Shown piece by piece: positions 1 to 28,035 of a stretch of 64,000 bases of DNA. Within the stretch, counting starts at the first letter, position 1. Every line of letters starts with the position of its first letter. The notes under the pieces are model-generated. The model had not been told where the DNA came from. It ran no database searches and was given only the letters and a program-made list of their open reading frames with translations. The translations under genes were made by a program, and so were the position numbers. Origin of the DNA: Escherichia coli (GTDB lineage Bacteria; Pseudomonadota; Gammaproteobacteria; Enterobacterales; Enterobacteriaceae); the NCBI RefSeq assembly GCF_013315695.1, contig NZ_CP054353.1; one strand, 5' to 3'.

Positions 1-41
1 TGCTGATGTGAACACCTGCCCAAATGAACCATCCTGACCCA

Positions 42-284
42 CTAGCGCCTGCCATACCCCACCATAAAGCGAATCATCAAGCCACAAGCCGGGGCAAGAA
101 ACATAAATATCCCCGTCACTAGTTCATTACCGCCAGTTAACCACATGGTGAAGTAGTAAATGAGTGCAGCGAGGATCACCATGCCGAAGAAAGAAGAGAC
201 CGCCGAGACCACGTTCAGGACCTGACCGATGTATCCGCTTACGCAGACAATACACAGGGCGAGAAACATCCATAAATAAATCAT
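42..284 (-). CDS. yfdY: small hydrophobic inner-membrane protein, 80 aa (YfdY-like)
   Basis: 80-codon ORF, almost entirely hydrophobic; lies divergently upstream of lpxP as in K-12 gene order. Confidence 0.7.
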   Translation of the reverse strand: MIYLWMFLALCIVCVSGYIGQVLNVVSAVSSFFGMVILAALIYYFTMWLTGGNELVTGIFMFLAPACGLMIRFMVGYGRR

Positions 285-636
285 AGCTCAACCTCCTGCC
301 GCGCTAAAAAACCTGTAACTTCAGTCACTTTAATAGTAAGACAATCCTTAACCTCTGGCAATTTTTGCTAAGCATCAATGAAAACAGCACGTTAAATGCA
401 ACGCTATTGCGTGCGGAAAACTTTTTACTTTGCACGATTAATAATCAGTAGCTGAAAGCCGTCAGCCAGTGATAAAGTAGAGCCACCGCATTCATGCTCC
501 TCGTGGTTATGTCCTGACTAGTCTTTACACTCTTTACAGGAACCATTGTCGTACATGATGGCCTAATCAATTGAGTGTACCGCTGTCGACATGGAATCTT
601 CTGCGATACAACAATTCGTATCTACAGAAGGTAACT

Positions 637-1557
637 ATGTTTCCAAAATGCAAATTTTCCCGCGAGTTTCTGCATCCTCGCTACTGGCTCACATGGTTTG
701 GGCTTGGTGTACTCTGGCTTTGGGTACAACTTCCTTATCCTGTTCTCTGCTTTCTCGGCACGCGTATTGGCGCAATGGCGCGACCATTCCTGAAACGGCG
801 TGAATCTATCGCCCGTAAAAACCTGGAACTTTGTTTCCCGCAGCATTCTGCGGAAGAACGCGAGAAGATGATTGCCGAAAACTTTCGTTCACTCGGCATG
901 GCGCTGGTAGAAACCGGCATGGCGTGGTTCTGGCCCGACAGTCGCGTACGTAAATGGTTTGATGTTGAAGGGTTGGATAACCTTAAACGCGCACAAATGC
1001 AAAATCGCGGCGTAATGGTTGTCGGCGTCCATTTTATGTCGCTGGAACTGGGCGGCCGCGTGATGGGACTGTGCCAACCAATGATGGCTACCTATCGTCC
1101 ACATAATAATCAGCTGATGGAATGGGTGCAGACCCGTGGGCGCATGCGCTCTAACAAAGCGATGATCGGCAGAAATAATCTGCGCGGCATTGTCGGTGCA
1201 CTGAAGAAAGGTGAAGCGGTATGGTTTGCTCCCGATCAGGATTATGGTCGTAAAGGCAGCTCCTTCGCGCCGTTCTTTGCGGTAGAAAATGTCGCCACAA
1301 CCAATGGCACCTATGTCCTCTCTCGTCTCTCTGGCGCAGCCATGTTGACCGTAACGATGGTAAGAAAAGCGGATTACAGCGGATATCGTTTGTACATCAC
1401 CCCAGAGATGGAAGGCTACCCGGCAGATGAAAATCAAGCCGCTGCCTATATGAACAAGATTATCGAAAAAGAGATCATGCGCGCACCGGAGCAGTACCTA
1501 TGGATCCACCGTCGCTTTAAAACGCGCCCGGTGGGAGAATCGTCGCTATACATTTAA
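637..1557 (+). CDS. lpxP: lipid A biosynthesis palmitoleoyl acyltransferase (LpxL/HtrB family), 306 aa
   Basis: ORF 571-1557; chose ATG at 637 (MFPKCKF...) with AAGG about 9 nt upstream; N-terminal TM segment followed by LpxL-family acyltransferase sequence. Confidence 0.9.
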   Translation: MFPKCKFSREFLHPRYWLTWFGLGVLWLWVQLPYPVLCFLGTRIGAMARPFLKRRESIARKNLELCFPQHSAEEREKMIAENFRSLGMALVETGMAWFWPDSRVRKWFDVEGLDNLKRAQMQNRGVMVVGVHFMSLELGGRVMGLCQPMMATYRPHNNQLMEWVQTRGRMRSNKAMIGRNNLRGIVGALKKGEAVWFAPDQDYGRKGSSFAPFFAVENVATTNGTYVLSRLSGAAMLTVTMVRKADYSGYRLYITPEMEGYPADENQAAAYMNKIIEKEIMRAPEQYLWIHRRFKTRPVGESSLYI

Positions 1558-1590
1558 CAAACTGCTCTTACTCTTTCCCTCCTCAAATCA

Positions 1591-1625
1591 GCCATAATAA
1601 CCTCATGGTTTTTATGGCTTTTTTC
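1591..1625 (+). terminator. rho-independent terminator of lpxP
   Basis: Stem GCCATAATAACC / GGTTTTTATGGC (one mismatch) with TCAT loop, followed by TTTTTTC. Confidence 0.6.
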
Positions 1626-1912
1626 TTAAGGTTTTTTCCTTCGCTGAATCTCTAATTATTACCGTCAGAAATTAAACTGTCGCCGATATGAGACACCTGT
1701 AAGTTACTAAAAGTAAATAAGAAAATGCCTCTTGTCTCGTTTCAGTTTTAGGCGTACATTAGCGCCGTCTGGAGCAGTTTAGCTCAGAATTCTGGGGTGA
1801 TGCCCACGGTAAAATACAGGACTTTTAAGGTCGTTTTGCCCGGTGTCAACTCACTGTATCAGGTGTAATGAAGTCATTCAGGCGTAACAGTAATTACGCG
1901 GAGAGATGTAAA

Positions 1913-1984
1913 GTGAAATATTTCTTTATGGGCATTTCTTTTATGGTCATCGTTTGGGCCGGTACTTTTGCCCTGATGATCTAA
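1913..1984 (+). CDS. ypdK: 23-aa single-TM small protein (YpdK-like), GTG start
   Basis: GTG AAA TAT TTC... encodes (M)KYFFMGISFMVIVWAGTFALMI; purine-rich stretch upstream; matches the K-12 small protein at this position (from memory). Confidence 0.55.
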   Translation: MKYFFMGISFMVIVWAGTFALMI

Positions 1985-2003
1985 AAGCAAACTGTGCAAT
2001 GAA

Positions 2004-2029
2004 AAACAGGAGCCATCTGGCTCCTGTTT
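2004..2029. terminator. bidirectional hairpin terminator between ypdK and alaC
   Basis: AAACAGGAGCC-ATCT-GGCTCCTGTTT perfect inverted repeat with A-run on one side and T-run on the other. Confidence 0.6.
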
Positions 2030-2048
2030 GCATTTCTGGCGATGGTGT

Positions 2049-3287
2049 TTATTCCGCGTTTTCGTGAATATGTTTGCTGCTGGCGGGTAGTAAACCGTCG
2101 GCACGGAACATCGCTTTAATTCCACGAATCGCCTGGCGAATACGATCGCGGTTTTCAATCAGTGCAAAGCGAACATGGGTGTCGCCGTAGTCGCCAAAGC
2201 CAATCCCTGGAGAGACACAGACCTTCGCTTCGTTAAGCAATTTCTTGGCAAATTCCAGTGAACCCATGGCCGCATATGGTTCCGGGATTTTCGCCCAGAC
2301 ATACATCGAAGCCTTCGGCATTTCGACCATCCAGCCCGCTTCATGCAGCCCTTTTACCAGTACATCACGGCGGCGTTTGTACTGTTCGGCAATATCGCGC
2401 ACGCACTGTTGATCGCCCTCCAGTGCCGCAATCGCCGCCACCTGCAACGGCGTAAAGGTGCCGTAATCGTGATAGCTTTTAATACGTGCCAACGCGCTGA
2501 CCAGCGTTTTGTTACCGACCATAAAGCCGATACGCCAGCCCGCCATGTTGTAACTTTTCGACAGCGTAAAGAACTCGACCGCCACATCGCGTGCACCTGG
2601 CACCTGCATGATTGACGGCGCTTTCCAGCCATCGTAGACGATATCGGCATAGGCCAGGTCATGGACCACCAGCACATCGTAGCGTTTCGCCAGCGCCACT
2701 ACTTTTTCGAAGAACTCCAGCTCCACGCATTGCGCAGTTGGGTTCGAGGGGAAGCCGAGGATCATCATCTTCGGTTTCGGATAACTTTCGCGAATGGCAC
2801 GTTCCAGTTCGTTGAAGAAATCGACACCTTCCACCAGCGGCACTGAGCGTACCTGCGCCCCGGCAATCACCGCGCCGTAAATATGAATGGGGTAACTTGG
2901 ATTCGGCACCAGCACTGTGTCACCGTGATCCAGCGTCGCCAGCATCAGATGCGCCAGGCCCTCTTTCGAACCAATAGTGACGATGGCTTCTGATTCCGGG
3001 TCGATTTCAACGTCGTAGCGATCCTGATACCAGCGGGAAATGGCGCGACGTAGCCGCGGAATGCCGCGTGAAGTGGAGTAACCATGCGTGTCCGGGCGCT
3101 GGGCCACCGTACATAATTTTTCGACGATATGCGGCGGAGTCGCACCGTCCGGGTTACCCATACTGAAATCGATAATATCTTCGCCGCGCCGACGCGCAGC
3201 CATTTTCAGTTCAGCGGTAATGTTAAAAACGTAGGGCGGGAGACGATCAATACGCGTAAAGCGACGTTCAGGGCGAGTGTCAGCCAT
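2049..3287 (-). CDS. alaC: PLP-dependent aminotransferase (glutamate-pyruvate aminotransferase AlaC), 412 aa
   Basis: 412-aa ORF with class I aminotransferase features, including the [15 protein letters not shown]-lysine region. Confidence 0.9.
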
Positions 3288-3663
3288 AATGTCCTCAGAT
3301 TAACGTTAGCGCCCGGACCGTCCGAGCGACGTCGCCACGATGGTGGCTGTTTTGAAAATAGCCTGATTAATTTCTGTCTGTCCAGCGTTTTAGAACATTT
3401 TTATCAATGGCTTTAAATGAGGAACTCCACTTCAAAAACAGGAAATTTATCTGCGCTAACAAGAAAATTACCACTCATTTTATTAACATTATAATTTCAA
3501 TAAATTTACCAAGCAGATGTGCATTATCAAGAGATGCATTGCTAATACACCATTTATCCTTCAATCCCCTTTTAAAATTGTGGCTTTTCCTCAAAAACGG
3601 CCTGCTGGTCATCAGCCTTCAGGTTACCTATCATAGAGGTTTAATCCTTATTCAGAGTCACCC

Positions 3664-5361
3664 GTGCACGAAATATTCAACATGCTGCTGGCGGTCTTCG
3701 ATCGGGCAGCGTTAATGCTTATCTGCCTGTTTTTTCTCATCCGTATCCGCCTGTTTCGCGAACTGTTGCACAAGTCGGCACACTCACCGAAAGAGCTGCT
3801 CGCCGTTACCGCCATTTTCTCGCTGTTCGCCCTGTTCAGCACCTGGTCCGGCGTTCCCGTAGAAGGCTCGCTGGTGAACGTACGTATTATCGCGGTGATG
3901 TCAGGCGGAATTCTGTTTGGCCCGTGGGTGGGCATCATTACCGGCGTGATTGCGGGTATTCACCGTTATTTAATTGACATCGGCGGCGTGACGGCGATCC
4001 CCTGCTTTATCACCAGCATTCTGGCGGGTTGTATATCGGGCTGGATCAACCTGAAAATCCCTAAAGCGCAGCGTTGGCGCGTCGGTATTCTCGGCGGCAT
4101 GTTGTGTGAAACGTTGACCATGATTCTGGTGATTGTCTGGGCACCAACTACCGCGTTGGGGATCGATATCGTCTCTAAAATCGGCATTCCAATGATCCTC
4201 GGTAGCGTCTGTATCGGCTTTATTGTGCTTCTGGTGCAAAGCGTTGAGGGCGAAAAAGAGGCCAGCGCCGCGCGGCAGGCCAAGCTGGCGCTGGATATCG
4301 CCAACAAAACGCTGCCGCTGTTTCGCCATGTCAATAGCGAGTCATTACGCAAAGTCTGCGAAATTATCCGCGATGACATTCACGCCGATGCGGTGGCGAT
4401 TACTAATACCGATCATGTGCTGGCCTACGTTGGCGTGGGTGAACATAACTATCAGAATGGCGATGACTTCATTAGCCCGACTACCCGTCAGGCGATGAAT
4501 TATGGAAAAATCATCATTAAAAACAATGATGAAGCCCACCGCACACCAGAGATTCATTCCATGCTGGTGATCCCATTGTGGGAGAAAGGCGTTGTGACCG
4601 GAACGCTGAAAATTTACTACTGCCACGCGCATCAGATCACCTCGTCATTACAGGAAATGGCGGTCGGTCTGTCACAAATCATCTCCACGCAACTGGAGGT
4701 TTCGCGCGCTGAGCAGCTGCGTGAAATGGCAAATAAGGCAGAGCTTCGCGCCCTGCAAAGCAAAATTAATCCCCATTTCCTGTTTAACGCTTTGAACGCT
4801 ATTTCATCGTCAATCCGCCTGAATCCGGATACTGCTCGCCAGCTGATCTTTAATTTGTCGCGCTATCTGCTCTATAACATTGAATTAAAAGATGATGAGC
4901 AAATCGATATCAAAAAAGAGCTGTATCAAATTAAAGACTATATTGCCATTGAGCAGGCCCGCTTTGGCGACAAGCTGACAGTTATCTATGATATTGATGA
5001 AGAGGTGAATTGCTGCATTCCCAGCCTGCTGATCCAGCCGTTGGTGGAAAACGCCATTGTCCACGGTATCCAGCCTTGCAAAGGTAAAGGCGTTGTCACC
5101 ATCAGCGTTGCAGAGTGCGGTAATCGGGTACGTATTGCGGTGCGAGATACCGGGCACGGCATCGATCCAAAGGTGATTGAGCGGGTCGAAGCGAATGAAA
5201 TGCCGGGCAATAAAATTGGCCTGCTGAATGTCCATCATCGTGTGAAGTTATTGTATGGCGAGGGGCTGCATATCCGCCGCCTGGAACCAGGAACGGAAAT
5301 TGCGTTTTACATTCCTAACCAACGCACCCCAGTCGCCTCACAGGCTACGTTATTGCTTTGA
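3664..5361 (+). CDS. ypdA: LytS-type sensor histidine kinase, 565 aa (YpdA; pyruvate-responsive two-component sensor in K-12)
   Basis: GTG start at 3664; N-terminal multi-TM region, central GAF-like region, C-terminal kinase with [10 protein letters not shown] motif and ATPase domain. Confidence 0.9.
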
Positions 5362-5375
5362 GCCGGAGTGATATT

Positions 5376-6110
5376 GTGAAAGTCATCATTGTTGAAGACG
5401 AATTCCTGGCACAACAGGAACTGAGCTGGCTAATTAAAGAGCACAGCCAGATGGAGATTGTCGGCACCTTTGACGACGGTCTGGACGTGTTGAAGTTTTT
5501 GCAGCATAACCGCGTCGACGCCATTTTTCTGGATATCAATATTCCGTCGCTGGATGGTGTGTTGCTGGCGCAAAACATCAGCCAGTTCGCCCATAAACCG
5601 TTTATTGTGTTCATCACCGCGTGGAAAGAACATGCGGTAGAAGCGTTTGAACTGGAAGCGTTTGACTACATTCTCAAACCGTATCAGGAGTCACGCATTA
5701 CCGGGATGCTGCAAAAACTGGAAGCAGCCTGGCAACAACAGCAGACCAGCAGTACGCCTGCCGCGACGGTAACGCGTGAGAATGACACCATTAATCTGGT
5801 GAAAGATGAGCGAATCATCGTCACGCCCATTAACGATATCTATTACGCCGAAGCGCATGAGAAAATGACCTTTGTCTATACGCGGCGTGAATCCTACGTA
5901 ATGCCGATGAACATTACCGAGTTTTGCAGCAAGCTGCCGCCGTCGCATTTTTTCCGCTGCCATCGCTCATTTTGTGTCAATCTGAACAAAATCCGCGAGA
6001 TCGAACCGTGGTTTAATAACACCTATATTCTGCGGCTGAAAGATCTGGATTTTGAAGTGCCGGTCAGCCGCAGCAAAGTTAAAGAATTCCGCCAGTTAAT
6101 GCATCTTTAA
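5376..6110 (+). CDS. ypdB: LytTR-family response regulator, 244 aa (YpdB)
   Basis: Chose GTG at 5376 (VKVIIVEDE) with GGAG upstream; receiver domain plus C-terminal LytTR DNA-binding domain; immediately follows ypdA. Confidence 0.9.
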   Translation: MKVIIVEDEFLAQQELSWLIKEHSQMEIVGTFDDGLDVLKFLQHNRVDAIFLDINIPSLDGVLLAQNISQFAHKPFIVFITAWKEHAVEAFELEAFDYILKPYQESRITGMLQKLEAAWQQQQTSSTPAATVTRENDTINLVKDERIIVTPINDIYYAEAHEKMTFVYTRRESYVMPMNITEFCSKLPPSHFFRCHRSFCVNLNKIREIEPWFNNTYILRLKDLDFEVPVSRSKVKEFRQLMHL

Positions 6111-6122
6111 TCGGGAACTTTC

Positions 6123-6980
6123 ATGAAAGCACCAGGCTTGCCCGCCGATCAACAATTTTTCGCCGATCTGTTCAGCGGCCTGGTGCTTAACCCGCAACTA
6201 CTGGGGCGCGTCTGGTTTGCCAGCCAGCCTGCCTCATTGCCAGTGGGCAGTTTATGTATTGATTTTCCCCGTCTGGATATCGTGCTACGCGGCGAATACG
6301 GCAATCTGCTGGAAGCAAAGCAGCAACGTATGGTGGAAGGAGAAATGCTGTTTATTCCGGCACGCGCGGCTAATTTACCGGTCAACAACAAACCGGTGAT
6401 GCTGTTAAGCCTGGTGTTCGCACCGACCTGGCTTGGGTTATCGTTTTACGATAGCCGCACCACGTCGTTGTTGCATCCTGCCCGCCAGATCCAGCTTCCC
6501 AGCCTGCAACGCGGCGAAGGTGAAGCGATGCTTACCGCCCTCACCCATCTTAGCCGTTCGCCGCTGGAGCAGAATATCATTCAGCCACTGGTGTTAAGTT
6601 TGCTGCATCTTTGCCGCAACGTGGTGAATATGCCACCGGGCAATTCGCAGCCGCGCGGCGATTTTCTCTATCACAGCATTTGTAACTGGGTTCAGGATAA
6701 TTATGCCCAGCAGCTCACCCGCGAGAGCGTGGCTCAGTTTTTTAATATCACGCCCAATCATCTGTCAAAACTGTTTGCTCAGCATGGAACAATGCGTTTT
6801 ATCGAGTATGTTCGCTGGGTACGAATGGCAAAGGCAAGGATGATTTTGCAGAAATATCATCTGTCGATTCATGAAGTGGCACAGCGTTGCGGTTTTCCGG
6901 ACAGCGACTATTTTTGTCGCATTTTCCGGCGTCAGTTTGGCCTGACGCCGGGAGAGTACAGCGCCCGTTTTCAGGGCTAA
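6123..6980 (+). CDS. ypdC: AraC/XylS-family transcriptional regulator, 285 aa
   Basis: C-terminal AraC-type HTH region (HLSKLF...RFIEYVRWVRMAKA...); 13 bp downstream of ypdB. Confidence 0.85.
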   Translation: MKAPGLPADQQFFADLFSGLVLNPQLLGRVWFASQPASLPVGSLCIDFPRLDIVLRGEYGNLLEAKQQRMVEGEMLFIPARAANLPVNNKPVMLLSLVFAPTWLGLSFYDSRTTSLLHPARQIQLPSLQRGEGEAMLTALTHLSRSPLEQNIIQPLVLSLLHLCRNVVNMPPGNSQPRGDFLYHSICNWVQDNYAQQLTRESVAQFFNITPNHLSKLFAQHGTMRFIEYVRWVRMAKARMILQKYHLSIHEVAQRCGFPDSDYFCRIFRRQFGLTPGEYSARFQG

Positions 6981-6982
6981 CG

Positions 6983-9478
6983 TCAGAAGGTTAATTCCGT
7001 TTCCAGCAGCGTCAGGATGCTTTGCGCATCTTGCGCGGCGAACAGCGACTGGCGGAAGTTTTTATTCACCAGTTTGCGCGCCAGCTGCGAGAAGACTTTC
7101 ACATGGCTCATCCCTTCGTTAGCACCTAACGTCAGCATGATCACCAGTTCGACTTCGCCCATTTCTGACTGCCAGTCAACCGGTTTCACCAGCCGGGCAA
7201 TGCTGATACTGGAATGACGGATCCACTGAGATTTGGTGTGCGGGATCGCTACGCCAAAACCAACGCCGGTGGTAACAATCTCTTCCCGCTGCCAGACATC
7301 TTCTTCCAGCTCAAACGGATGTTCAGTACGCCCGTTAACGCCGAGGTTACCGCACAGGAACTGGATCGCCTGCTCTTTATTGCTAAAGGCCTGATCAACG
7401 AAGATATTCTCCAGCGCCAGCAGCGGGCGAACGTCTTCTTCCGGCGTAAACGCGGTGAGTAACGCTTCAATCTCCTGCGCGCTGCGGCATTCACATGCCT
7501 GACGCGCCAGTTCCCGACACGCCTCGCTATCCAGTTGACGAAGCTGGCTTTTCACCGCCGGAATGCGCGGGCTACTCATACTCAGCTCGTCCAGGCCCAG
7601 CCCAAGCAGTAGCGGCAGATAACGACTTTCACCGCCCAGTTCACCGCAAATACCTACCCATTTACCCCGCTGATGCGCAGTGGTAACAATCTGCTGCAAC
7701 ATGCGCAGGAACGATGGCGTAATCGGGTTATACAGCGGCGATACGCGCGGGTTATTACGATCGACCGCATACAGATACTGGGTCATATCGTTGGAGCCGA
7801 TACTGAAGAAATCGACCTCATCGCAGAAGTGATCGATGATGTAGCACACCGACGGCACTTCCACCATGATACCCAGCGTAATCGTCTCTGCATGACGCAG
7901 GCCATCGCGCTTAAGCTCAACGATCGCTTTTTGGATCTCGCCCTTCACCCATAAGATCTGATCGAGGCTGTGAACCATCGGGATCATCAACTGGGCGTTG
8001 CCGAAACAGGCAGCACGCAAAATCGCCCGCAGTTGAGTGCGGAACAGGCCAGCAAATTCCGGGTAAATACGTACCGCGCGATAGCCGAGGAACGGGTTCT
8101 CTTCCTGGGGAATATTCAGATAAGGAATGCTTTTATCGCCGCCGATGTCCATCGTGCGGAAGATAATCGGCTTGTCGCCCGCCGCCAGTAGCACCTGCTG
8201 GTAGGCTTCAAATTGCTCCTGCTCGTCCGGCGCGCTGTCGCGATCCATATAGAGCATTTCGGTACGGAACAGCCCGACACCTTCCGCGCCGTTGGCAAAC
8301 GCGCCTGGCGCTTCCAGCGCGGTGCCGATATTCGCCGCAATATCAATACGCTTGTTATCACGGGAATAGGCCAGCTGCGCGGCGGCCTGCGCCTGTTGTT
8401 TTTGGCGTTTATCCGCCAGCGTCTGCGCAACCTGATAATAACCGCTCACCGCGTCATTCGGGTTAATCGCCAGCACGCCGCACTGGGCGTCAAGCACTGC
8501 AGGTTGCCCGGCATAACGGGCAATCGCATCCAGCGGCAGGCCGCTCAGTACCGGGATCGCCGAAGCGCGGGCCAGGATCAGGGTATGCGAGGTGCGCCCG
8601 GTTTTCTCCAGAATCATGCCCGCAAGATTTTTTAAATCGAGGCTCAAAAACTGGCTTGGGGTTAAATCTTCAGCCACCAGAATAGTCGGTTTTTCAAGCA
8701 CCAGATTATTGCGCGGTTTTAGTTCCGGCCAGGTGATATGCAGCAACTGTTCGCTGATATCGCGAATGTCGCTGACCCGCTCGCGCAGATAATCGCTGGC
8801 AGAAGCAGAAAGTTTGGCACAAACCTGCTCCATATTGCTGATGATCGCCGCCCCCAGCCCCTGATGCTGTTCTGCCATCAGGTGACGGATATTGCCTGCA
8901 AATTCATCATCCTGAATCAGCGACAAATGGGCGCTGAGGATAGTTTTGCTTTCGCCGTCACGCTCACGCAATTGCTGGTTCAGTTGCTCGGCAAGCGTTG
9001 CCAGACTGTGCTCCAGCAGGGTGGAATCTTGCGCACTGGCCGGTATTGCCCGATAACTGTCGAGGCTGTCGCTCTGTAACAGGGTCAGCGTACCCACGCC
9101 GACGCCGCTTGCCAGCACATTGCCGTACAGTAAATCAGGATTCAGACGGCTTAATGAACGCGGCAGCGGATGCGCCGTCAGTTCTGCCTGCGTTGGCTGG
9201 ACGCTGTCGCTGTCGATAAAGCGCGCCTGGATGTACTCTTCCAGCACGCGCCGCGCCTGCTCTTCATCGCTGCCGCTAATGTTCAGGCTGCAACTGTCAT
9301 TAAATAGGGTGCCGGTGCCAATCAGCGCCAGCGAGCTTTTCGCATCTGCCTTTGCGTTCTGGCGATGGTTGATGAAGGTGATTTCGCTTTGCCACTGGCT
9401 GCACTGTTCTTTAAGTTCCCACGCCGGACGAGCATGCAGACCGTTAGGCAGAGGACAGAGAAATTGAATCGTTAGCAT
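6983..9478 (-). CDS. fryA: PTS multiphosphoryl transfer protein (EIIA-HPr-EI fusion), 831 aa
   Basis: N-terminal HPr-like domain (GLHARPA), internal EI core and C-terminal EIIA-like domain; last gene of a minus-strand operon. Confidence 0.9.
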   Translation of the reverse strand: MLTIQFLCPLPNGLHARPAWELKEQCSQWQSEITFINHRQNAKADAKSSLALIGTGTLFNDSCSLNISGSDEEQARRVLEEYIQARFIDSDSVQPTQAELTAHPLPRSLSRLNPDLLYGNVLASGVGVGTLTLLQSDSLDSYRAIPASAQDSTLLEHSLATLAEQLNQQLRERDGESKTILSAHLSLIQDDEFAGNIRHLMAEQHQGLGAAIISNMEQVCAKLSASASDYLRERVSDIRDISEQLLHITWPELKPRNNLVLEKPTILVAEDLTPSQFLSLDLKNLAGMILEKTGRTSHTLILARASAIPVLSGLPLDAIARYAGQPAVLDAQCGVLAINPNDAVSGYYQVAQTLADKRQKQQAQAAAQLAYSRDNKRIDIAANIGTALEAPGAFANGAEGVGLFRTEMLYMDRDSAPDEQEQFEAYQQVLLAAGDKPIIFRTMDIGGDKSIPYLNIPQEENPFLGYRAVRIYPEFAGLFRTQLRAILRAACFGNAQLMIPMVHSLDQILWVKGEIQKAIVELKRDGLRHAETITLGIMVEVPSVCYIIDHFCDEVDFFSIGSNDMTQYLYAVDRNNPRVSPLYNPITPSFLRMLQQIVTTAHQRGKWVGICGELGGESRYLPLLLGLGLDELSMSSPRIPAVKSQLRQLDSEACRELARQACECRSAQEIEALLTAFTPEEDVRPLLALENIFVDQAFSNKEQAIQFLCGNLGVNGRTEHPFELEEDVWQREEIVTTGVGFGVAIPHTKSQWIRHSSISIARLVKPVDWQSEMGEVELVIMLTLGANEGMSHVKVFSQLARKLVNKNFRQSLFAAQDAQSILTLLETELTF

Positions 9479-19270: not shown

Positions 19271-20696
19271 TAATGCCAGTCAGTTAAGCAACTGACTGGC
19301 TCTTTTTCGGGGCTGTGGGGTATTTCCAGGGCCTCTCCTTTACCACTCTCGGGAAGGCCCTTTCCCTTCTTGTCGGTAATTTCACAAGTTGTCCCATACT
19401 TGCAAGATCGCGCATCAGCTCCGGTATACGTCCCGGTGAAGCGCCCTGCAATGTCATCAGCATTCTCATCACCATTCCGCATGATTCTGAGAAACTCAGT
19501 TGATTCGGCCAGTAACCTTTCAGATGTTCCGCCATTTTAATCATCTGATATCTCACCAGATTATAAGCCAGTAAGACACCCCACAGCTCTTGCTCCACAA
19601 GCTCCGGTTTTTTACTTCTCAGCGTCAGCCTGCTCAGTTGCATCGTCTGTTTTATCTCCCTGTATCCCAGTTCGATTTCCCAGCGATGACTGTACAGATC
19701 CGCCATTTCTCCTCCGGGGAAGCGCATGGCGTCCGTCATCGACGTCAGCAGATGGCAGACTTTTCCTTTGCGCGTCACGGTCAGCAGGCGGGCTGTCACT
19801 TCATTTCCCAGTCCCGGCCACTTTTTTCGTGCCTGCGGGCTGGTTTTCAGCTTCACCAGATGATCGCCTTTACCCAGTTTTCTGATCTCTTCATATTGCG
19901 CTCCCTTTCTGAGAGGTATCATCCAGTGGCGGTGTTCTCCCGCCAGGCTCCAGGCATTTAACAGTCCCAGTGAGTAATAACCTTTATCCATTAACGTCAG
20001 AGTGTTATCGCCGGTTTGTTCTATAAGTTGCTCAGCAAGCTCATTTTCGCTGTTCTTCATCGTGCCGAAGGCTGCAGCCGTCAGCAGATGGCTGGTCAGT
20101 TCCATCTGGCAGACCATTTTGACCTGCGGGTAGAGCGCCGGGTTCCCGGCATGTGTCTGGCGGGGGAAGGCTGCATCGTTCTCTGGTGTATCCGGTGTGC
20201 GCCAGAACACACCATCGATGGCCAGCAGGGTCAGGCCGCACCAGTGCGGATGCGGCGTGGCGTTATGCCAGAGCTGCGCTGTTTTCGTGAACACGCGGCG
20301 GACAGCCTCACTTCCCAGGCGCTGGCGGGCCTGAATAACGGCACTGGGGGCAACGAAGGGGCGATTGCCCGGCAGCATGATGTCCAGGCGATTCACAATC
20401 TGGTGAAGAGGTTCTTTACGCTCAAGCGCCATGCCAACAATACACCAGACCATCATTTCGAGGGGAAGACGGCGCTTGCGTAGCGTTACAGTACCTGATT
20501 CGGCAAGGCAACGAGAGATGAGTTCGGGGTCGAGGTAATCCCCCAGAGAAGTCAGTGGGTTACGCAGAGAATCGTAACGGGATACCAGATCAAGAGCCTG
20601 TCCAATGTGCATAAAAAAATCCGGAAACAAGTGAGCGTTTCCGGATTCTTACACAGCCACTGGATCGGTCAACTGATCCTTAACTGATCGGCATTA
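19271..20696 (-). mobile_element. IS4 insertion sequence, complete (1426 bp)
   Basis: Terminal inverted repeats TAATGCCAGTCAGTTAAG (19271-19288) and TAATGCCGATCAGTTAAG (reverse complement of 20679-20696), 16 of 18 identical; length exactly 1426 bp; one 442-aa IS4-family transposase ORF; flanked by a 13-bp direct repeat. Confidence 0.85.
19284..20612 (-). CDS. insG: IS4 transposase (DDE, IS4 family), 442 aa
   Basis: ORF 19284-20630; ATG at 20612 gives MHIGQALDL... (442 aa), with an in-frame TTG 6 codons upstream; contains the IS4-family YREK signature ([15 protein letters not shown]). Confidence 0.85.
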
Positions 20697-23894: not shown

Positions 23895-24287
23895 ATGAAA
23901 AGATTACGCAATAAAATGACCACCGAAGAACTGGCTGAATGCCTCGGTGTGGCTAAACAAACTGTTAACCGTTGGATCAGAGAAAAAGGCTGGAAAACGG
24001 AAAAATTTCCTGGCGTGAAAGGCGGTCGTGCCAGACTTATTCTGGTCGATACGCAAGTTTGCGATTTTATTCAGAACACGCCAGCCTTCCATAACACGCC
24101 GATGCTTCTGGAAGCCGAAGAACCCCTTGCCGAATACGCACCGGGGATTCGCACTCCTGCTTATCGGCAAATCATCAGCGCAATAGACAACATGACTCAC
24201 AGTGAGCAGGAAAAAGTTGCGCAATTTTTGTCACGCGAAGGAATTCGTAATTTCCTTGCTCGTCTCGACATAGATGAATCAGCTTGA
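23895..24287 (+). CDS. yfeD: small HTH DNA-binding protein, paralog of YfeC (YfeD), 130 aa
   Basis: Shares the motif EELA..LG..KQT.N.W.R.KGW.T...PGV.GG.ARL with yfeC; start is 1 bp after the yfeC stop. Confidence 0.8.
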   Translation: MKRLRNKMTTEELAECLGVAKQTVNRWIREKGWKTEKFPGVKGGRARLILVDTQVCDFIQNTPAFHNTPMLLEAEEPLAEYAPGIRTPAYRQIISAIDNMTHSEQEKVAQFLSREGIRNFLARLDIDESA

Positions 24288-24326
24288 CATCCTCCACGCC
24301 CTGAATGACGAGGATCCCTGCTACGT

Positions 24327-25535
24327 TCAGGCTGTCACCTGAATCATTTCGGTGGGTTCCTGCTTCAACGAGCGGCCTGACTGCACCATCTCTCCACAGG
24401 CAAGAACGGCGTGCCCCGCCGCTAAAATGTTACGAGCGCCATTTACATCAGCGTTCGCTGTATATCCACATGCCTGGCATCTGAATTTACTTTGTGACAG
24501 GCGATTTTCTTTCGCTGTATGACCACAGCACGCGCAACGCTGGCTTGTGTACGCTGGCGGAACAGCAAGCACCTGACCGCCACGCCAGAGCTGCTTGTAC
24601 TCAAGCTGGCGGCGCATTTCATACCAGCCCTGATCCAGTATCGAACGGTTTAAACCTGATTTTGCCCGGACATTGCGCCCCGGCTGGCTGACCGTACCCG
24701 CTGCTGACTTTGACATGTTGCTGACCTTCAAATCCTCAATGACTATCATTGCGTGGTTTTTGCTGACGGTCGTTGTGACTTTGTGAAGGTAGTCCCTGCG
24801 GATATTTGCGATACGGGAATGCAGTCGCTGTATTTTGCGTTTCTGCTTCTGCCAGTTATTGCTGAATTCGACCTTGCGGCTTAACTGTCGCTGAAGTCTC
24901 GCCAGCGTCTTCTGGTTTTTCTGAAAACTGTTTACAGGCTCAAAGACTGTGCCATCTGACAGCGTGGCGAGTTTAGCCACGCCAGCATCCAGCCCGACCA
25001 TTGATGCTGAAGGGTGAACCGGAGTGGATACTTCACTTTCTGTCTGAATACTGATGTACCACTTACCGCAGGACTGGCTGACAGTGACATTTTTCACAAC
25101 ACCCGTGACCTGACGGCTGTTCCGGTAGCGCATCCAGCCAAGTTTCGGCAGAAAAATACGGCTGTTTTCCTGATCGAGCTTAACGCCCTGCGGGTAGCGG
25201 AATGCATCATTCTGTCCCCGCTTTTTGAATCGGGGAAAAGCAGCCCGCTTCTGGAAGAAGTTTTTGTAAGCCCGCTCAAGGTCTTTCAGTGACTGTTGCA
25301 ATGGCTGTGAGGGCGAATCTTTAAGCCATTGCATTTCAGTGGCGTTTTTCCACTCAACCAGCCAGGAAGCCATTTTCCCGTAAGGGATGTATTTATTACC
25401 GGCCTCATGATTCTCATTCTGAAGCGCCAGAGCACGATTGAAAACGAAACGACATGCGCCTGCGAAGCGCCTCATTTCACACTCCTGTTGACCACCTGGT
25501 CTTAACTGGAATTTAAATGCCTGTAATCGTTTCAC
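24327..25535 (-). CDS. tnpB: TnpB (OrfB) RNA-guided endonuclease of IS200/IS605 family, 402 aa
   Basis: Conserved N-terminus ([10 protein letters not shown]...[13 protein letters not shown]), RuvC-I VGLDAGV, Ruv[12 protein letters not shown], zinc finger CACCGH...CQACGY, Ruv[17 protein letters not shown] start at 25535 has no SD, internal ATG at 25475 has strong AGGAG and would give 382 aa. Confidence 0.85.
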
Positions 25536-25542
25536 AGGTCAA

Positions 25543-26030
25543 ATGATACTTTGGTCTGTGAAAAAAGAAACCGATATCCGGCGTGGAAGGCATTGTGTTT
25601 TCCTGATGCATGTTCACCTGGTCTTTGTCCCAAATACCGACGCCAGATTTTTGACCATGACGCGACAGAAAAACTACGCACTTACTATTCAAATGTATGT
25701 GCTGATTTTGAAGCTGAACTGGTTGAAATGGATGGCGAACCAGATCACGTCCATTTGTTAATTAACTATCCTCCCAAACTGGCGATATCCAGTCTGGTAA
25801 ACAGCCTCAAAGGCGTATCGGGTAGGTGACTGCGACGAGATCGACCAGATATTGCAGTCAGGTATTACTACAAAGGCGTTTTGTGGAGTCCTGGCTATTT
25901 TGCCAGTAGCTGCGGAGGTGCGCCAATATCCGTCATCCGCCAATACATTGAACAACAGCAAACACCTGGTCAGGTGGAAAACCGCGCCTTATATCCCCGC
26001 CCTGAAGGACGGGGTTTTACGGCGCACCGG
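25543..26030 (+). pseudogene. tnpA: tnpA (IS200/IS605 Y1 HUH transposase), disrupted
   Basis: TnpA-like sequence is split: ...HCVFLMHVHLVFVP in one frame, KYRRQIF...DHVHLLINYPPK...SLKGVSGR in another (about 1-nt loss near 25628-25631), then an in-frame TGA at 25827-25829, then ...WSPGYFASSCGGAPISVIRQYIEQQ. Confidence 0.65.
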
Positions 26031-26040
26031 ATAAATAAAA

Positions 26041-26067
26041 AACGGCAGGGGTATCTCTCCTGCCGTT
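26041..26067. terminator. gltX rho-independent terminator (bidirectional hairpin)
   Basis: AACGGCAGG-loop-CCTGCCGTT 9-bp stem; on the minus strand followed by TTTTTTATTTAT, 18 bp after the gltX stop. Confidence 0.65.
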
Positions 26068-26084
26068 TATCTTTTATGCGCTAA

Positions 26085-27500
26085 TTACTGCTGATTTTCG
26101 CGTTCAGCAATAAAAGCCAGCGCTTTGTTGATACGCTCGATACTGCGGGTCTTACCGATTGCGTGAACGGTAACATCCAGCGCTGGAGACTGCCCCGCAC
26201 CGGTTACGGCGACACGCAGCGGCATACCAACTTTACCCATACCCACTTCCAGCTCATCCGCCGTCGCCTGAATAGCGTGATGAACGTTTTCAGCGGTCCA
26301 GTCAGTAATCGCAGTCAGTTTGTCACGAACCACTTCCAGCGGCTGACGCGCTACCGGACGCAGATGTTTTTTCGCGGCGTCGGCATCGAACTCAGCAAAA
26401 TCTTCGTAGAAATAACGGCAGCTCTGTGCCATCTCTTTCAGCGTCTTGCAGCGTTCGCCCAGCAGTTTCACCAGATCAGCCAGCTGCGGGCCGTTACGGG
26501 TATCGATATTTTCCTGCTCAATGTGCCACTGTAAGTGAGTAGCAACATACTCCGGCGGCAGCGCGTTAATGTAGTGATGGTTCAGCCACAGCAGCTTGTC
26601 GGTGTTGAACGCACTGGCAGATTTGCTGACGGCATTCAGAGTGAAGTATTTGATCATCTCTTCACGAGTGAAGATTTCCTGATCGCCGTGGGACCAGCCC
26701 AGACGCACCAGATAGTTCAGCAGTGCTTCTGGCAGATAACCATCATCACGATACTGCATTACGCTGACCGCCCCGTGACGTTTGGACAGTTTTTTACCGT
26801 CATCGCCGTTGATCATAGAAACGTGCGCGTAAACCGGTACCGGCGCTTTCAGGGCTTTAAGAATGTTGATCTGGCGCGGCGTGTTGTTGATATGGTCTTC
26901 GCCACGGATAACATGGGTGATTTCCATATCCCAGTCATCAACAACCACACAGAAGTTATAGGTTGGGGAACCATCGGTACGGCGAATGATCAGATCATCC
27001 AGCTCCTGGTTGCTGAACTCAATCGGGCCACGGATCTGATCGTCAAAAACAACAGAACCTTCCTGCGGGTTAGCAAAACGTACAACGCACGGTTCATCAT
27101 CAGCATGATGCTCATGGCTGTGGCGGCAGCGACCGTCATAACGCGGCTTCTCACCTTTCGCCATTTGCTCTTCGCGCAGCGCTTCCAGGCGCTCTTTAGA
27201 GCAATAGCATTTATAAGCTGTGCCCTCTTCCAGCATCTGATCGATCACCGCGTTGTAGCGATCAAAACGTTTGGTCTGGTAGTACGGACCTTCATCCCAC
27301 TCCAGGCTCAGCCAGTTCATGCCATCCATAATGGCTTCGATAGCTTCCGGCGTGGAACGCTCAAGATCGGTGTCTTCAATACGCAGCACGAACTCACCGC
27401 CGTGGTTACGTGCAAAAAGCCAGGAGTAAAGAGCAGTACGCGCGCCGCCAACGTGCAGATAGCCTGTTGGGCTTGGCGCGAAGCGAGTTTTGATTTTCAT
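26085..27500 (-). CDS. gltX: glutamate--tRNA ligase, 471 aa
   Basis: Class I aaRS with HVGG-type motif ([18 protein letters not shown]) and KLSKR (KMSKS-type) motif. Confidence 0.95.
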
Positions 27501-27759: not shown

Positions 27760-27835
27760 GGGTGATTAGCTCAGCTGGGAGAGCACCTCCCTTACAAGGA
27801 GGGGGTCGGCGGTTCGATCCCGTCATCACCCACCA
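27760..27835 (+). tRNA. valU: tRNA-Val (anticodon UAC)
   Basis: 76 nt GGGUGAUUAGCUCAGCUGGGAGAGCACCUCCCUUACAAGGAGGGGGUCGGCGGUUCGAUCCCGUCAUCACCCACCA; anticodon loop CUUACAA; encoded CCA. Confidence 0.92.
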
Positions 27836-27879
27836 ACTACTTTATGTAGTCTCCGCCGTGTAGCAAGAAATTGAGAAGT

Positions 27880-27955
27880 GGGTGATTAGCTCAGCTGGGA
27901 GAGCACCTCCCTTACAAGGAGGGGGTCGGCGGTTCGATCCCGTCATCACCCACCA
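27880..27955 (+). tRNA. valY: tRNA-Val (anticodon UAC), identical second copy
   Basis: Exact duplicate of the previous tRNA after a 44-bp spacer; which K-12 paralog name applies is uncertain. Confidence 0.9.
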
Positions 27956-27959
27956 CTTC

Positions 27960-28035
27960 GGGTCGTTAGCTCAGTTGGTAGAGCAGTTGACTTTTAATCA
28001 ATTGGTCGCAGGTTCGAATCCTGCACGACCCACCA
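27960..28035 (+). tRNA. lysV: tRNA-Lys (anticodon UUU)
   Basis: 76 nt GGGUCGUUAGCUCAGUUGGUAGAGCAGUUGACUUUUAAUCAAUUGGUCGCAGGUUCGAAUCCUGCACGACCCACCA, 4 bp after the preceding tRNA-Val. Confidence 0.92.

Follow-up and report, generated by a model that had tools for sequence, protein, structure and literature searches.

The stretch of DNA analysed here, 64,000 nucleotides of an Escherichia coli contig (NZ_CP054353.1, assembly GCF_013315695.1) and hereafter called the window, carries one copy of the insertion sequence IS609. The best explanation for the state of this copy, with a probability of about 0.85, is that it is a resident, non-autonomous element with a dead tnpA and the rest intact, that its lesions have moved mainly by gene conversion, and that its tnpB is under weak-to-moderate selection. 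The feature itself is already known and ordinary, as K-12 and hundreds of RefSeq genomes carry annotations of an IS609 with a tnpA pseudogene and an undamaged insQ/tnpB. Mildly new are the allele frequencies in the E. coli population, which may be of modest use for the study of TnpB persistence without a transposase, and the clear evidence for conversion as the route by which lesions and tnpB sequence pass from copy to copy. In addition, the analysis identifies the lesions as genuine shared alleles, revises how the frameshift arose and brings the number of lesions to three.

Identity and boundaries of the element

The element lies in the intergenic region between yfeD and gltX, 3' of the tetranucleotide TTAT, and its limits were set by comparison with strain 536, in which the same site is empty (Table 1). 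The empty site reads ...AATCAGC followed by ATAAATAAAA (also written ...GATGAATCAGC followed by ATAAATAAAAAACGG); at this junction 1,747 bp are inserted in the window, and comparison of the occupied with the empty site reveals no target duplication. The top strand of the element is the tnpB-sense strand, corresponding to the minus strand of the window, and on this strand the element ends in ...GGATGTCAA. TTAT flanked the left end at all nine of the distinct IS609 insertion sites sampled. When positions 24100-26100 were compared by megablast with 5,426 complete E. coli genomes, the central ~1.75 kb was recovered near full length in 4,307, with the matches annotated as IS200/IS605 tnpA plus 'RNA-guided endonuclease InsQ/TnpB', and intact relatives bear the PGAP label 'IS609 family transposase'. 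Identity to 24 other IS609 copies ranges from 97.4 to 99.3%, and is 98.1% over 1,747 bp to the K-12 copy.

The copy displays the features by which members of the IS605 group of IS200/IS605 elements are recognised, namely a gene for a Y1 HUH TnpA (here with three lesions), a TnpB with a RuvC-like nuclease and zinc ribbon, insertion 3' of a short specific sequence without duplication or terminal inverted repeats, and an imperfect subterminal palindrome near each end, both on one strand (the right-end fold taken alone being non-significant, z = -0.8). Its near-identity to the reference E. coli element assigns it to IS609 by name. The intact transposase frame of an autonomous IS is lacking (frameshift at codon 30, TGA at codon 96 and stop-loss). 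At every point on which sequence can be judged, membership of IS609 and of IS200/IS605 holds, and autonomy alone fails.

The GC skew of the plus strand (-0.04) places the top strand of IS609 on the lagging-strand template, which is the expected orientation for the IS200/IS605 family and may be read as an indirect sign of replication-coupled, single-strand peel-and-paste transposition. The GTG start of tnpB (25535, minus strand) and the ATG start of tnpA (25543, plus strand) are divergent and only 7 bp apart (25536-25542), and the promoter of each gene must therefore lie within the coding sequence of the other. A promoter and terminator scan was uninformative (one promoter-like site versus 1.7 expected), and region-by-region diversity across IS609 revealed no clearly constrained non-coding segment.

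Table 1 Coordinates of the IS609 copy, its parts and its lesions within the window
Feature	Coordinates	Strand	Remarks
Complete IS609 element	24284..26030	-	1,747 bp; boundaries from the empty yfeD-gltX site of strain 536
TTAT target / transposon-adjacent motif	26031..26034	-	directly 5' of left end; single copy
Left-end subterminal hairpin	25984..26025	-	core CCCCGTCC-TTCA-GGGCGGGG at 25995-26014; presumed TnpA binding site
Right end	24284..24317	-	imperfect palindrome GGATCCTCGTCATTCAGGGCGTGGAGGAT, then terminal GTCAA
Expected omega-RNA scaffold region	24284..24480	-	tnpB 3' end plus right end; extent inferred
Flank 3' of right end	24264..24283	-	GCTGATTCATCTATGTCGAG; would-be omega-RNA guide sequence, by analogy
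tnpB	24327-25535	-	402 aa, full length; GTG start and length as in RefSeq annotation
Gene-conversion tract	24441..25369	-	inside tnpB; holds all 13 differences from nearest relative MS 21-1
tnpA codons 1-29	25543..25629	+	native frame; ATG start kept
Lesion 1, 1-nt deletion (A)	25629..25630	+	frameshift at codon 30; from alignment to L004, L003 and others
Lesion 2, TGA for TTA (Leu96)	25827..25829	+	T to G at 25828
Lesion 3, CAG for canonical TAG stop (codon 144)	25971..25973	+	stop-loss

Lesions in tnpA

Lesions were located by translating the three plus-strand frames of the window and aligning them to the intact IS609 tnpA of strain B1S11 (L004; WP_024203870, 143 aa), as well as to L003 and others. 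The fragments are TnpA-derived, as the intact relative reaches 143 bits against NF033573, for which the cut-off is 55, and both breaks of the reading frame that had been claimed in the original prediction were recovered, together with a third lesion. The prediction had ascribed the frameshift to the loss of one nucleotide from a run of C. The 1-nt loss and the switch of frame between HLVFV(P) and KYRRQIF stand, but the run did not contract: intact copies read GTC ACC A(A/G)A TAC (V-T-K/R-Y) where the window reads GTC CCA AAT ACC, so that GTCACC has become GTCCC and the base lost is an A. Because it was an A that was lost, the CCC run at 25629-25631 is the product of the deletion and not its cause, and the implied slippage or sequencing error in a C-run is wrong. 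The in-frame TGA lies exactly where it had been placed, at a codon that is TTA (Leu96) in intact copies. The end of the span previously given for the finding, 25543-26030, turns out to be the boundary of the element and not the end of tnpA, and within that span the replacement of the TAG stop by CAG had been missed. Without its stop, the tnpA frame extends across the left end as far as 26084. The same CAG is found in the window and in 20 of the 25 sampled copies, and 'open' tnpA alleles with the stop-loss would be extended by residues that the left end and the flank encode.

The catalytic Tyr135 (in RQYIEQQ) and the HUH motif H69-V-H71, placed by homology to the IS608 and ISDra2 TnpA structures, are both downstream of the frameshift at codon 30. 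The alignment supports the view that frameshift and TGA both inactivate TnpA; tnpA is here a pseudogene, its native frame being truncated by the TGA at codon 96, and this copy cannot make TnpA.

The frequency of each allele was determined in complete E. coli genomes with 40-41-nt queries centred on the diagnostic base, designed such that any 28-base megablast seed must include it. This gave 327 places for the frameshift allele (deletion of A, delA), distributed over 240 genomes. At codon 96, TGA occupied 3,371 places (2,726 genomes) and TTA 4,481 (2,532 genomes), and the canonical TAG stop was present at 1,582 places (1,410 genomes). With roughly 7,800-7,850 IS609 copies in the 5,426 genomes, TGA accounts for 43% of the copies typed at codon 96, and the canonical tnpA stop is present in only about 20% of copies. 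A tnpA pseudogene described in RefSeq as 'frameshifted; internal stop' occurs at yfeD-gltX in MS 21-1, CUVET16-465, RM14723 and SC516. Counts of junction 41-mers place the element at this site in at least 535 genomes and show the site empty in at least 1,032, both being lower bounds because flanking SNPs break the 28-base seed in most genomes. The lesions are genuine, old alleles that circulate in the E. coli IS609 population.

These numbers bear directly on whether tnpA might after all be functional. That the lesions are artefacts of sequencing or assembly and the gene is really intact is practically inconceivable, even though the frameshift coincides with a short run of C: what is missing is an A and not a C, MS 21-1 carries the same lesions between flanks 100% identical to those of the window, and the recurrence of delA in 240 independent complete genomes and of TGA in 2,726 already refutes the idea and excludes the sequencing error in the C-run that the original prediction had asked to be checked. 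Exceedingly improbable, too, is a trickle of TnpA made by recoding, that is, by a -1 slip at the frameshift site combined with a leaky TGA. The sequence at 25629-25635 does read C CCA AAT in the zero frame, which fits the X XXY YYZ pattern of -1 slippery heptamers, a slip there would restore the native frame (..VFVPNYRRQIF..; the arithmetic was checked directly), and the TGA has a C after it, which is a leaky context. However, slippage with AAU in the A site is inefficient in E. coli, two recoding events on top of a stop-loss would give a negligible yield, and further lesions have accumulated in the same haplotype family, for example ATG to ATT in four copies. As tnpA in lesioned copies shows no constraint (pN/pS 1.30), the slippery heptamer is probably a coincidence.

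Gene conversion between IS609 copies

IS609 copies are heavily mosaic and do not cluster by chromosomal site. In a four-gamete test of the first 15 copies, 731 of 1,540 informative site pairs failed, giving a minimum of 23 recombination events (Rm >= 23) in 1.75 kb. Exchange has also left a mark within the window copy. Relative to its nearest relative, MS 21-1, the element differs by 13 SNPs, all in tnpB, versus ~9 SNPs in ~38 kb of flank (Poisson P 4e-19), and 12 of the 13 window alleles in this tract are present in IS609 copies at other chromosomal sites. The tract is, on this evidence, the product of a recent ectopic gene conversion, with the second IS609 copy of MS 21-1 as the likely donor.

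Elsewhere in the window, further differences from MS 21-1 were observed. A ~1.43-kb segment between nupC and pdeA (19271-20696) is absent from MS 21-1; it contains an ORF (19284-20630) for an IS4-family transposase (NF033592 at 304 bits), and the segment therefore represents an IS4-family insertion polymorphism. Downstream of gltX, positions 27760-28033 contain two tRNA-Val genes and a tRNA-Lys gene where MS 21-1, RM14723 and SC516 have three tRNA-Val genes, which reads as a copy-number change in a tandem valU-type array. Positions 1-7415 gave no alignment with the MS 21-1 counterpart, which has Mu-like prophage genes (Mor, Gam and a DDE transposase).

TnpB and selection on its gene

The open tnpB of the original prediction was confirmed as a 402-aa frame with the start and length given in RefSeq. 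The protein scores 390.9 bits on NF040570 (NCBIfam 'guided_TnpB'; cut-off 100) and matches the ISDra2 TnpB structures 8h1j/8exa with an E-value of 1e-53. It retains the RuvC residues D183, E267 and D363 and the zinc-finger cysteines C334/C337/C353/C356, and thus has the RuvC D-E-D triad and CxxC...CxxC zinc finger of OMEGA nucleases. Among its amino acid changes, T68M is private to the window, and K223E and V355A are rare.

The comparison of dN/dS between tnpB and tnpA remnants that had been proposed was carried out as pN/pS over 25 copies at nine sites, which were picked partly by allele, so that the frequencies given for this sample are biased. Over all copies, tnpB has 69 nonsynonymous and 48 synonymous changes (pN/pS 0.41, P=5e-6 versus neutrality) and tnpA has 30 and 8 (pN/pS 1.11, not different from neutral), a difference with a Fisher p=0.03, although the counts are not independent samples because the copies recombine and were chosen by allele. 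Within copies that have an intact tnpB, the tnpB ratio is 0.44 where tnpA is dead (43 nonsynonymous and 28 synonymous; P=0.0009) and 0.24 where tnpA is open (25 and 30; P=3e-7). Intact tnpB genes are present in 21 of the 25 copies, compared with three copies that have a canonical intact tnpA and six in which tnpA is open with only the stop-loss. The remaining four copies have a broken or truncated tnpB, including two at yfeD-gltX (CUVET16-465 and SC516), and selection on the gene must therefore be weak or episodic.

Lesions that disrupt tnpB are each confined to one copy within the 25-copy sample, whereas tnpA lesions are common to many copies and sites. S386* departs from this rule, since the truncation was met again in two more copies at yajI that do not belong to the sample. 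In L009, L027 and L028, all at yajI, TnpB is cut at S386 (385 aa; WP_071779335 in two strains) and annotated as an intact CDS. The last 17 residues of TnpB may be dispensable. Together, the polymorphism data moderately support, for the family and not for this copy individually, the suggestion that tnpB has been kept by selection, which would be weak-to-moderate and purifying.

Origin of the shared lesions and of the open tnpB

The combination of delA and TGA seen in the window is also present at a second site, inside yajI, in an identical haplotype in SMS-3-5, EFF60, 98210 and YL03. The frameshift allele occupies up to three places in some genomes. Six sites are known to harbour the TGA allele, and at least five of them carry TTA at the same insertion point in other strains. 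Examples of such unlesioned tnpA alleles are those at yfeD-gltX in RM19259 and O157:H7 and at yajI in ECSC054. Since the lesions sit at sites that are unlesioned elsewhere, either the insertions predate the lesions or alleles were exchanged later. No third site peculiar to the frameshift allele came to light, as the two further matches examined both lay at yajI. A different pair of tnpA lesions, a 1-nt deletion at the equivalent of 25584 together with E62*, is shared by L014/L023 (yidH) and L020 (ydcO-ydcL) and parallels the delA+TGA pattern.

Two processes could have carried the lesions between sites. Mobilisation of the doubly lesioned element in trans, by the TnpA of another copy after the death of its own tnpA, would fit with the haplotype at yajI in four strains, the several places per genome occupied by the frameshift allele and the six sites of the TGA allele, and is favoured by the intact ends and by the presence of TTA-bearing copies in 2,532 genomes. 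It nevertheless appears rather unlikely, as the same insertion points are unlesioned in RM19259, O157:H7 and ECSC054, no site was found with the lesioned allele only, the copies are heavily mosaic without clustering by site, and the window itself shows a conversion tract directly. For these reasons the yajI haplotype was not accepted as proof of trans-mobilisation. Because IS609 copies exchange sequence by conversion, the sharing of lesions across sites is no evidence of trans-mobilisation here; conversion between copies, along with ordinary recombination between strains, is enough to explain it. Viewed in isolation, the recurrence of the lesions at other sites resembles movement of dead copies, but the pattern points to gene conversion as the main and better explanation of how they moved. 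A separate doubt concerns the asymmetry between the genes, which would be meaningless for this copy if the whole element were decaying neutrally and tnpB were open merely by chance and recency. Two lesions falling on targets of 432 and 1,209 nt would both strike tnpA by chance with a probability of ~0.07, in CUVET16-465 and SC516 tnpB is already a pseudogene at the same site, its pN/pS is higher in tnpA-dead than in tnpA-open copies, and the K-12 IS609 is transpositionally silent (PMC5009759), which would leave homing with nothing to act on. Against this, the tnpB ratio departs from neutrality and differs from that of tnpA, and tnpB lesions, S386* excepted, are single-copy within the sample while tnpA lesions are widely shared; neutral decay of the whole element is accordingly judged unlikely. 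The reading retained is that of a resident element whose tnpA lesions spread mainly by conversion and whose tnpB is under weak-to-moderate selection.

Element ends, putative guide RNA and proposed function

The left-end hairpin has a DNA fold of -17.3 kcal/mol (z = -2.6) and, from what is known of IS608 and ISDra2, is presumed to be the TnpA binding site. It has the motif GTC(C/A)TTCAGGGCG in common with the right end. Neither the TTAT target nor the hairpin at the left end, the palindrome at the right end or the terminal TCAA has been damaged in the window copy, which makes the description of the element as 'immobile' in the original prediction an overstatement; 'non-autonomous' is accurate. 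On sequence grounds the copy is non-autonomous yet a candidate for mobilisation by TnpA made elsewhere.

RAGATH-18 RNAs are known to guide TnpBs (PMC11061315). A RAGATH-18-like Rfam match (E = 0.014; 29.5 bits, below the gathering score of 44.9) was found on the minus strand at 24357-24400. These positions belong to the 3' end of tnpB, the expected place of a TnpB guide-RNA scaffold, and the sub-threshold match weakly indicates the presence of a guide RNA. The RNA fold of the tnpB 3' region gave no significant signal (z = -1.4), and the copies are too alike for covariation. The window contains no TTAT-adjacent copy of GCTGATTCATCTATGTCGAG elsewhere, and in the occupied state TTAT and the GCTGATTCATCTATGTCGAG target are kept apart by the element.

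Following the TnpB homing model of Meers et al. (preprint, 10.1101/2023.03.14.532601), TnpA from an autonomous IS609 copy would excise the top strand directly after TTAT and after TCAA, leaving a seamless joint of TTAT and GCTGATTCATC (written as TTAT followed by GCTGATTC). TnpB would load an RNA made from the 3' end of tnpB and the right end and reading into the flank (ending in GCUGAUUCAUCUAUGUCGAG), and this complex, guided by GCTGATTCATCTATGTCGAG to its match next to TTAT, would cut the site left empty, after which recombination with the sister chromosome would restore the element. The excised copy could re-insert with TnpA supplied by another IS609 copy. For the window copy, we infer guide-RNA production, TnpB activity, homing and mobilisability in trans by analogy with such systems.

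A more far-reaching idea is that IS609 persists as anciently fixed copies, mostly with a dead tnpA but a live tnpB, whose nuclease genes stay open through purifying selection and frequent conversion between copies, and that double-strand breaks made by TnpB and its guide RNA could be what triggers this conversion. The extreme mosaicism, the lesion haplotypes that cross sites and a fresh tract exactly within tnpB are compatible with it. If true, TnpB would thereby preserve its own gene family and keep the members alike even after transposition had ceased; as an account of IS609 it is nonetheless considered very unlikely.

Comparison with known systems

The closest known counterpart of the resident, tnpA-dead copy described here is the K-12 IS609 (ydcO-ydcL; tnpA pseudogene plus insQ/ydcM), which is 98.1% identical, has the same divergent tnpA and tnpB with an intact 402-aa tnpB, and shares both the TGA at codon 96 and the stop-loss. 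It differs from the window copy in lacking the 1-nt deletion at codon 30 and in lying at another site, hence with another flanking guide. The parallel drawn in the original prediction with K-12, an insP pseudogene beside an intact insQ, is therefore essentially right, except that the frameshift is absent there. The absence of new IS609 insertions in K-12 mutation-accumulation lines (0 observed; PMC5009759) fits the single tnpA-dead copy of that strain.

IS608 of Helicobacter pylori (TnpA structures 2a6m/2vjv) resembles IS609 in its homologous Y1 HUH TnpA (E 2e-18), its insertion 3' of a tetranucleotide without duplication, its TCAA right end and its subterminal hairpins on one strand. Its target is TTAC and its tnpA and tnpB are co-directional. 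In contrast, the window IS609 has TTAT as target, divergent genes 7 bp apart from start to start, and a dead tnpA. The ISDra2 TnpB-omegaRNA (8h1j, 8exa) is similar to the window TnpB in full-length homology, RuvC D/E/D residues and zinc finger. Its transposon-adjacent motif is TTGAT, whereas that of the window TnpB is predicted to be TTAT, and the guide RNA of the window copy is putative. Others have already purified an IS609 TnpB, treated as a canonical TnpB, for interference or cleavage assays (PMC12781874).

Non-autonomous, tnpB-only IS605-family elements such as those of Geobacillus stearothermophilus likewise combine a tnpB and guide-RNA module and conserved ends with the lack of a working tnpA, and are presumed to move in trans and to owe their retention to homing (Meers et al., 10.1101/2023.03.14.532601). 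Unlike these elements, the window IS609 has a tnpA that is a recognisable pseudogene and not deleted, and IS609 copies occupy fixed, anciently shared chromosomal sites. About three quarters of tnpB genes have no tnpA nearby, and their mobilisation is believed to occur in trans (Meers et al., 10.1101/2023.03.14.532601), and the asymmetry between tnpA and tnpB seen in the window is therefore the norm for the family.
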